Below, in pieces: positions 5,229 to 5,290 of a DNA stretch of 64,000 nt. The notes below the pieces were generated by a model. It did no database searches. It saw only the letters and a list, made by a program, of their open reading frames with translations, and was not told where the DNA came from. Position 1 is the stretch's first letter. The number at the start of each line of letters is the position of its first letter. A program made the translations under genes and the position numbers. This DNA is from Escherichia coli (GTDB lineage Bacteria > Pseudomonadota > Gammaproteobacteria > Enterobacterales > Enterobacteriaceae). The DNA lies in the NCBI RefSeq assembly GCF_001677475.2, contig NZ_CP015229.1, one strand, 5' to 3'.

Positions 5229-5290
5229 TGTCGGATGCGCTTCGCTTATCCGACCTACAGGGGAGGATATTGTAGGTCCGGTAAACGCGG
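5229..5290. repeat. REP-like palindromic element
   Basis: Imperfect palindromes (tcggatgcgcttcgcttatccga; gacctaca...tgtaggtc) resembling REP units; approximate coordinates. Confidence 0.3.

Follow-up and report, generated by a model that had tools for sequence, protein, structure and literature searches.

REP units (repetitive extragenic palindromes) of E. coli differ in the upper part of the hairpin, which is 12 nt long in Y, 14-15 nt in Z2 and 7 nt in Z1 units of the reference set used here (the MG1655 REPtron around rayT, a 50-kb MG1655 control that includes malE-malF, and two loci found by similarity, ugpB-ugpA and yjeI-yjeJ). The Z1 REP, belonging to the enterobacterial 'GTAG-3' family, carries a 5' GTAG tag, a 7-bp foot ending in GAT/ATC, an AA/GC mismatch and a short GC-N3-GC upper hairpin. 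The features reported to be required by TnpAREP/RAYT are the 5' GTAG, the foot stem and the stem mismatch (PMC3333891, PMC3479197), and a REP consensus, GCCGGATGCGGCGTGAACGCCTTATCCGGCCTACGA, is quoted in PMC12306157. In BIMEs, two REP units of opposite orientation are joined by a linker: BIME-1 consists of a Z1 unit, a long linker with an IHF site (34 nt in the yjeI-yjeJ example) and a Y unit, while BIME-2 consists of a Y unit, a short linker and a Z2 unit, and usually forms tandem arrays. REPINs are mobile inverted REP pairs with a short spacer, folding as one long hairpin and replicated together by RAYT. Some 60% of E. coli REPs are located between convergent genes, and roughly 30% of the gaps between such genes contain a REP (bioRxiv 10.64898/2026.03.23.713779), so that the presence of a REP between two converging transcription units is in itself unremarkable.

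Here we describe a REP doublet downstream of narGHJI in a 64,000-nt stretch of an E. coli chromosome (the window). An earlier note, made from the letters of the window, had pointed to REP-like palindromes at 5229-5290 and suggested that they might be a boundary element separating the nar operon from the convergent tyrT transcription unit. The doublet is already known, both in kind (E. coli REP family) and as a member of that kind, REP108, which is listed at MG1655 1286595-1286666, between narI and ychS (supplement of bioRxiv 10.64898/2026.03.23.713779). With high confidence, we read the feature as the strain's copy of REP108, a doublet of REP units in opposite orientation whose GTAG-tagged feet face each other across 13 nt, which is an old rather than a recent resident of the site and has at most a generic role at RNA 3' ends. 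The features of the locus, in window coordinates, are the following.

4485-5162, plus strand: narI, the last gene of narGHJI (ORF list; aligned RefSeq records annotate narI).
5181-5206, plus strand: narGHJI intrinsic terminator, a 9-bp G+C-rich hairpin (5181-5202) followed by T7 (terminator scan).
5230-5258, minus strand: REP unit 1, intact, with its hairpin at 5230-5254 and its tag at 5255-5258 (strict REP-core test, fold energies, copy number).
5259-5271, no strand: 13-nt spacer between the CTAC and GTAG tags, AGGGGAGGATATT (sequence).
5272-5301, plus strand: REP unit 2, decayed, GTAG GTCCGGT AAACGCGGTGCC ATTGGGC (sequence; intact orthologues elsewhere).
5231-5302, no strand: whole doublet, corresponding to REP108 of MG1655 (1286595-1286666; coordinate transfer via the K-12 locus L001).
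5245-5434, minus strand: approximate equivalent of the K-12 Rho-binding peak, with coordinates transferred from K-12 (supplement table).
5347-5834, minus strand: three RtT repeats (5347-5478, 5525-5656 and 5703-5834) in the distal tyrT unit (Rfam RF00391, 135-137 bits each).
5881-5965, minus strand: single tRNA-Tyr(GTA) gene (ARAGORN).
6043-6016, minus strand: promoter-like site of tRNA-Tyr, TTTACA-16-TATGAT (promoter scan).

The E. coli origin of the window is evident from a 301-nt query around the element, which matches 5,420 of 5,426 complete E. coli genomes (best match strain elppa4, 99.7%). The gene order is narGHJI, terminator, REP doublet, the tyrT-RtT unit on the opposite strand, and purU. 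The doublet lies in the gap of about 140 nt between the converging nar and tyrT-RtT units; unit 1 begins 67 nt past the narI stop codon and 23 nt past the end of the T-run of the nar terminator, whose hairpin is conserved across Enterobacteriaceae. The terminator scan and the RtT and tRNA-Tyr calls thus bear out the position given in the earlier note, downstream of the narI terminator and facing the convergent tyrT unit. The palindromes quoted there are also real, with the strings located at 5231 (TCGGATGCGCTTCGCTTATCCGA), 5252 (GACCTACA) and 5271 (TGTAGGTC). The proposed end has to be moved: the element reaches about 5301-5302, and a limit at 5290 cuts through the right arm of unit 2.

The MG1655 RefSeq tables carry no REP features, even at malE-malF, so that missing annotation there is uninformative. 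The locus is absent from the RepRanger supplements. Over 5229-5302, no Rfam covariance model matches at E<=1, and the matches found nearby are limited to three RtT units, the tRNA and terminator look-alikes below threshold. In K-12, the ychS CDS (L001 910-1185, equivalent to window ~5345-5620, plus strand) runs opposite to the RtT repeats, wholly within them, and appears to be a spurious ORF call. As a consequence of this call, REP108 is classed between 'tandem' genes in the published table, while its real neighbours are convergent.

The tyrT region itself (window 5343-5965) is highly polymorphic in copy number between strains. In the window, a single tRNA-Tyr gene is combined with three full RtT repeats. 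Two tRNA-Tyr genes are present in K-12, in strain elppa4 and in strain Z226-7, with about three RtT repeats in K-12, four in elppa4 and none in Z226-7; in CUVM53 and O55:H7, an RtT unit is located between the tRNA genes. Such variation would be explained by unequal recombination among the 178-bp repeats.

REP unit 1 is an intact canonical Z1-type REP. Read on the minus strand from 5258 to 5230, its sequence is GTAG GTCGGAT AA GCGAAGC GC ATCCGAC, comprising the GTAG tag (5258-5255), a perfect 7-bp foot, the AA/GC internal mismatch (GC/TT on the plus strand), a 2-bp upper stem and a 3-nt loop. The hairpin itself, TCGGATGCGCTTCGCTTATCCGA, is found once in the window, at 5231. The short loop places the upper part in the Z1 type, and the loop sequence GCGCTTCGC is also present in the yjeI-yjeJ BIME-1 and in the ugpB-ugpA REP. 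Unit 1 is identical to the Z1 units of yjeI-yjeJ except at three positions of the foot stem, and at two of these the changes compensate each other as a pair. The foot stem, GTCGGAT/ATCCGAC, can be compared with GCCTGAT/ATCAGGC in typical Z1 and GCCGGAT/ATCCGGC in Y units: stem position 4 is G, as in Y, and position 2 is a compensated T-A pair. Against the consensus GCCGGATGCGGCGTGAACGCCTTATCCGGCCTACGA, 22 of 24 arm positions agree (9/10 on the left, 13/14 on the right), and the two departures pair with each other as a compensatory T-A. Like other E. coli REPs, unit 1 is extragenic, located at the 3' ends of convergent units and multi-copy. From its sequence, it has every reported TnpAREP/RAYT determinant (the 5' GTAG, the 7-bp foot stem and the AA/GC mismatch) and would be expected to be of the kind that these enzymes recognize.

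The assignment was made with a strict REP core, defined as GTAG, G...GAT, AA, G...C, GC and ATC...C with complementary arms. This core matches once in the window (unit 1, no mismatch), 10 times in the 50-kb MG1655 control and never in 200 shuffles of the window. Narrow patterns matched only the element itself within the window, and a loose detector ('GTAG + any 7-bp hairpin') was dropped because it gives about 13 matches per shuffled window. Unit 1 is also predicted to fold stably, with RNA fold energies of -12.6 kcal/mol on the plus strand (z -2.85) and -12.3 kcal/mol on the minus strand (z -2.90), and DNA fold energies of -8.3 and -8.5 kcal/mol (z -3.7 and -4.1). The earlier note had suggested a comparison with REP consensus collections and named a lack of similarity to them and of a stable secondary structure as what would refute it; the similarity found is strong, a stable structure is predicted for unit 1, and the REP-type identity proposed there is upheld by the strict-core match, the consensus arms, the hairpin and the REP108 listing together. 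With a single canonical REP by the strict core in the entire 64-kb window and 10 in the 50-kb MG1655 control (4.20-4.25 Mb), the neighbourhood of the doublet is unusually REP-poor.

Elsewhere in the genome, sequences like unit 1 are common. A 34-nt query containing it finds a median of 9 near-identical places per genome (E<=10), in 5,425 of 5,426 genomes, and unit 1 is at least 99% identical in 4,334 records. Among nine E. coli strains, 1 of its 25 sites is variable, compared with about 10% in the flanks; this amounts to no measurable extra conservation over the flanks, nine strains being too few to show a difference.

REP unit 2 is a remnant of a 'GGT/ACC'-type REP, a type that has not been amplified in E. 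coli. It retains its GTAG tag on the plus strand (5272-5275) but fails the strict REP core, and the allele of this strain forms no REP hairpin on folding (z +0.29); its foot contains three G-T pairs, and its mismatch is AA/CC instead of AA/GC. Unit 1 and the spacer are identical to those of K-12, while unit 2 has three differences (at 5277, 5288 and 5297), all of them C-to-T or T-to-C. Those at 5277 and 5297 turn G-C pairs of the foot into G-T pairs, which accounts for the fact that the K-12 allele still folds as a REP hairpin (-10.6 kcal/mol) while the allele of this strain does not. Unit 2 is single-copy in E. coli (a median of 1 place per genome).

Intact orthologues of unit 2, of the form GTAG GCCCGGT AA...CC ACCGGGC and with a perfect foot, are present in Pseudocitrobacter, Citrobacter amalonaticus, Citrobacter sp. 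NCU1 and Trabulsiella, and a close variant of the intact form occupies the same site in Enterobacter, Pseudenterobacter and Lelliottia. The E. coli alleles differ from the intact form in the foot stem by C-to-T changes that convert G-C to G-T pairs, and unit 2 of K-12 is about 90% identical to that of Citrobacter and Pseudocitrobacter. The second palindrome of the earlier note (gacctaca...tgtaggtc) is present in the sequence, but it is not a unit of its own: it consists of the CTAC and GTAG tags and the adjoining stem bases of the two REPs that face each other. A weak sigma-70-like match, ATGGCA-16-TACAAT (9/12; window 5296-5269, minus strand), overlaps unit 2 and the spacer and faces narI. 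It is probably due to chance, the region having 2 such sites against 0.7 expected.

As a whole, the doublet resembles BIMEs in having two REP units in opposite orientation with a linker between them, and differs from both described classes. Unlike BIME-1, its spacer is only 13 nt long, the partner of its Z1 unit is not a Y unit, and the IHF consensus WATCAANNNNTTR was not found in a pattern search of both strands of 5200-5330. Unlike BIME-2, it contains neither a Y unit (12-nt upper part) nor a Z2 unit (14-15 nt) and is a single doublet. It is thus at most an 'atypical' or degenerate BIME. With REPINs it shares the inverted REP pair, the short spacer and a predicted long hairpin, but it is a heterodimer of two REP types, single-copy as a doublet, and without sign of recent mobility.

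The same architecture is found in the REP doublet between hpaH and hpaF in E. coli strains with the hpa cluster (carried by some E. coli strains, not all), which consists of a 'GAT'-type unit ending in CTAC, a spacer and GTAG GCCCGGT AA...ACCGGGC. In strain CKJ_1000_3.1 (L096 650-735), the first unit is of the GCCGGAT type. The hpa doublet lies at another locus and both of its units are intact, which shows that E. coli has, in the hpa cluster, real REPs of the 'GGT/ACC' type to which unit 2 belongs.

Beyond E. coli, narI loci were taken from 80 species representatives. A doublet of the form '...CTAC - spacer - GTAG...' follows the narI terminator in Citrobacter (several species, including sp. 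NCU1 and C. amalonaticus), Pseudocitrobacter, Trabulsiella, Enterobacter, Pseudenterobacter and Lelliottia. The same layout is found at this site in Salmonella enterica subsp. arizonae, while in subsp. diarizonae only the first unit is recognisable. Kluyvera, Klebsiella and relatives have the doublet layout with their own REP type. Among the loci examined, the GTCGGAT foot is confined to this locus, where E. coli, Citrobacter sp. NCU1 and Pseudocitrobacter share it. A foot common to these three groups, together with a unit 2 that is single-copy in E. coli, suggests an old doublet inherited vertically rather than a recent insertion, and with the same layout at this site in several genera, we take the doublet to have long resided between narGHJI and tyrT-RtT by vertical descent. 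In Pseudocitrobacter vendiensis (L034 ~3730-4030), unit 1 is present three times in tandem, each copy with a terminator-like piece, followed by one intact unit 2; the first of these copies is identical to E. coli unit 1, and the array looks like a local amplification of a 'terminator + REP' module.

Alignment of the doublets from 12 taxa supports two separate hairpins. Pairing in their foot stems reaches 92%, both partners have changed in four of the pairs, and the covariation score of 0.275 compares with 0.159 in shuffles, is reached by 0 of 500 shuffles, and falls to 0.108 or less in slid registers. The long helix between the units is 78% paired across taxa and shows no sign of covariation, its score being reached in 53 of 500 shuffles. 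The covariation of the separate hairpins across genera could be due to genomes replacing the units with REPs of their own type, rather than to constraint at the locus.

Conservation between strains, which the earlier note had proposed to check, is partial: of 5,426 complete E. coli genomes, 4,358 (about 80%) retain the arrangement, but the tags are mutated in some strains and the region is replaced in about 20%. In strain Z226-7, CTAC has become CTTC and GTAG has become TTAG, and the stem-closing base before CTAC is also changed from C to A. In strain CUVET18-565, the GTAG of unit 2 is TTAG while unit 1 is intact; this strain also has an IS4-family insertion sequence inside the stem of the narGHJI terminator hairpin (L007 190-1500). 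In the roughly 20% of genomes with a replacement, a 7-gene island takes the place of the whole terminator-REP-RtT region. The doublet is also absent in 'E. coli' E69 and in several Citrobacter and Kluyvera species. The mutated tags, the unfolded unit 2, the island replacement and the absences in relatives together indicate that the element is dispensable.

The island was seen in strain A21 (L006/L095), E. albertii (L011) and E. whittamii (L009), where it is about 7 kb long and lipid-related and is accompanied by neither the doublet nor RtT. In A21 it runs from just past narI to within 16 nt of tRNA-Tyr. Its genes encode a 3-oxoacyl-ACP synthase III-like protein, an epimerase, an MBL hydrolase, an F390 synthetase-related protein, a PAP2 phosphatase, a sterol desaturase and a fatty-acid desaturase. 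In the E. whittamii and E. albertii loci, and in a further locus (L008), a BIME-1-like element directly follows narI; it is complete in the former two, and its second unit is cut short in L008.

What the doublet may do at the site can be considered separately for the two strands. Its origin would be that of a non-autonomous repeat dispersed by a RAYT, and its present role, extrapolated from other REPs, would be at most a generic and dispensable one at 3' ends. On the plus strand, the doublet lies past the nar terminator, so that only read-through RNA would contain the REP and nar mRNA would rarely include it. An effect on translation has been described for stop-codon-proximal REPs, within 15 nt of the stop codon (PMC12306157); unit 1, at 67 nt past the narI stop, is too distant for it.

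On the minus strand, the doublet would lie at the far end of the Rho-terminated tyrT-RtT transcript, in a C-rich stretch that binds Rho in vitro. An in vitro screen reported Rho binding on the minus strand of MG1655, with a peak at 1286609-1286798 both in the presence and in the absence of NusG (supplement of bioRxiv 10.64898/2026.03.23.713779). The peak overlaps REP108 by 57 of its 189 nt and lies mostly outside the REP; in the window, GC skew on the plus strand ranges from +0.3 to +0.55 across most of 5200-5400, making the minus-strand RNA C-rich. Rho-terminated RNAs are reported to be cut back to stable hairpins, which are sometimes REPs (PMC6061677), and REPs have been described as Rho-linked terminators and decay blocks (PMC6061677, bioRxiv 10.64898/2026.03.23.713779); REP325 acts as a partial Rho-dependent terminator and stabiliser (bioRxiv 10.64898/2026.03.23.713779). 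By analogy, the unit 1 hairpin could cause pausing and block 3'-to-5' exonucleases, thereby setting and stabilising the end of the minus-strand RNA, and less antisense transcription into narI might result. We therefore consider the unit 1 hairpin a reasonable candidate for the structure that would protect the 3' end of tyrT-operon read-through RNA, and the whole region a reasonable candidate for a barrier to antisense transcription into narI. The boundary element of the earlier note is plausible but unproven. The preference of REPs for sites between convergent genes and the Rho-binding peak over REP108 speak in its favour; the intrinsic terminator that the nar operon itself possesses, 23 nt upstream, counts against a required boundary role, as do the mutated tags, the island replacement and the lack of the doublet in related species.

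Several other explanations of the feature were weighed. That the palindromes are not a REP but arose by chance, or simply belong to the narGHJI intrinsic terminator or back it up, might be suggested by their location only 23 nt past the terminator T-run and by the commonness of short inverted repeats in intergenic DNA, to which the many matches of the loose detector in shuffled windows (~13 each) attest. But the strict REP core is never reached in 200 shuffles, on neither strand does a T-run come after a REP hairpin, the only terminator given by the scan is that of nar (5181-5202), and the sequence belongs to a repeated family that is present in practically all E. coli genomes (5,425/5,426) and catalogued as REP108. 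The shuffles, the terminator scan, the copy number and the REP108 listing refute this explanation, whose probability we regard as negligible. The same holds for a small protein from ORF 5175-5309 (44 aa, TTG start), which is present in the mechanical ORF list but starts inside the terminator hairpin; its TTG start is missing in K-12 and Z226-7, where the first codon is Ser, and the terminator and the REP units fully account for the sequence. This ORF was rejected since its start codon is not conserved. A recently transposed REPIN, i.e. a mobile doublet folding as one long hairpin, is very improbable. It would agree with the inverted units and short spacer, and the whole region can indeed fold as one hairpin (17-nt arms, 82% complementary, -28.6 kcal/mol, z -2.1). 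However, the doublet pairs two different REP types, its unit 2 is single-copy in E. coli, orthologues occupying this site in other genera indicate that the doublet is old, and the long inter-unit helix, 78% paired across taxa, lacks covariation (53/500 shuffles).

A further explanation accepts the REP doublet but holds it to be a selected, site-specific boundary module, either integral to the Rho-dependent tyrT-RtT terminator or serving as a site for gyrase or for topological relief where two highly transcribed units converge, and maintained for that function across Enterobacteriaceae. The presence of a REP doublet at the same position in many genera is consistent with such a module, as are the Rho-binding peak over REP108, with and without NusG, and the C-rich minus-strand RNA. 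In addition, unit 2 is still about 90% identical between K-12 and Citrobacter or Pseudocitrobacter despite the lack of other E. coli copies that could homogenise it, and convergent gene pairs containing REPs have higher expression (bioRxiv 10.64898/2026.03.23.713779). Against this, the element has repeatedly been lost or replaced, natural strains have mutated tags and an unfolded unit 2, the nine E. coli strains show no added conservation, and the unit sequences follow each genus's own REP type, as expected for turnover at the level of the family. On balance we consider the selected module unlikely. A more specific proposal, in which the doublet is an anciently domesticated and positionally fixed part of the Rho-dependent tyrT-RtT end, kept at the narI/tyrT junction across much of Enterobacteriaceae, where it would set the 3' end of the RNA and protect narI against antisense transcription, is offered as a speculation that we think quite unlikely to be correct. 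The reading that we prefer remains that of an old REP doublet, the strain's copy of REP108, with at most a generic 3'-end role.

The main value of the analysis lies in the correct annotation of the element, REPs being the most abundant repeats of E. coli. The shielding of narI, if true, would act against transcription from one of the strongest promoters of the cell. The overlap with an in vitro Rho-binding peak at the end of the tyrT operon, a classic Rho-terminated operon, makes the locus a handy test case for the model of the REP as terminator and stabiliser. For the REP family, it is a clean case of a doublet that has been held at one site across genera while its halves diverge, one remaining canonical and the other decaying by C-to-T changes.
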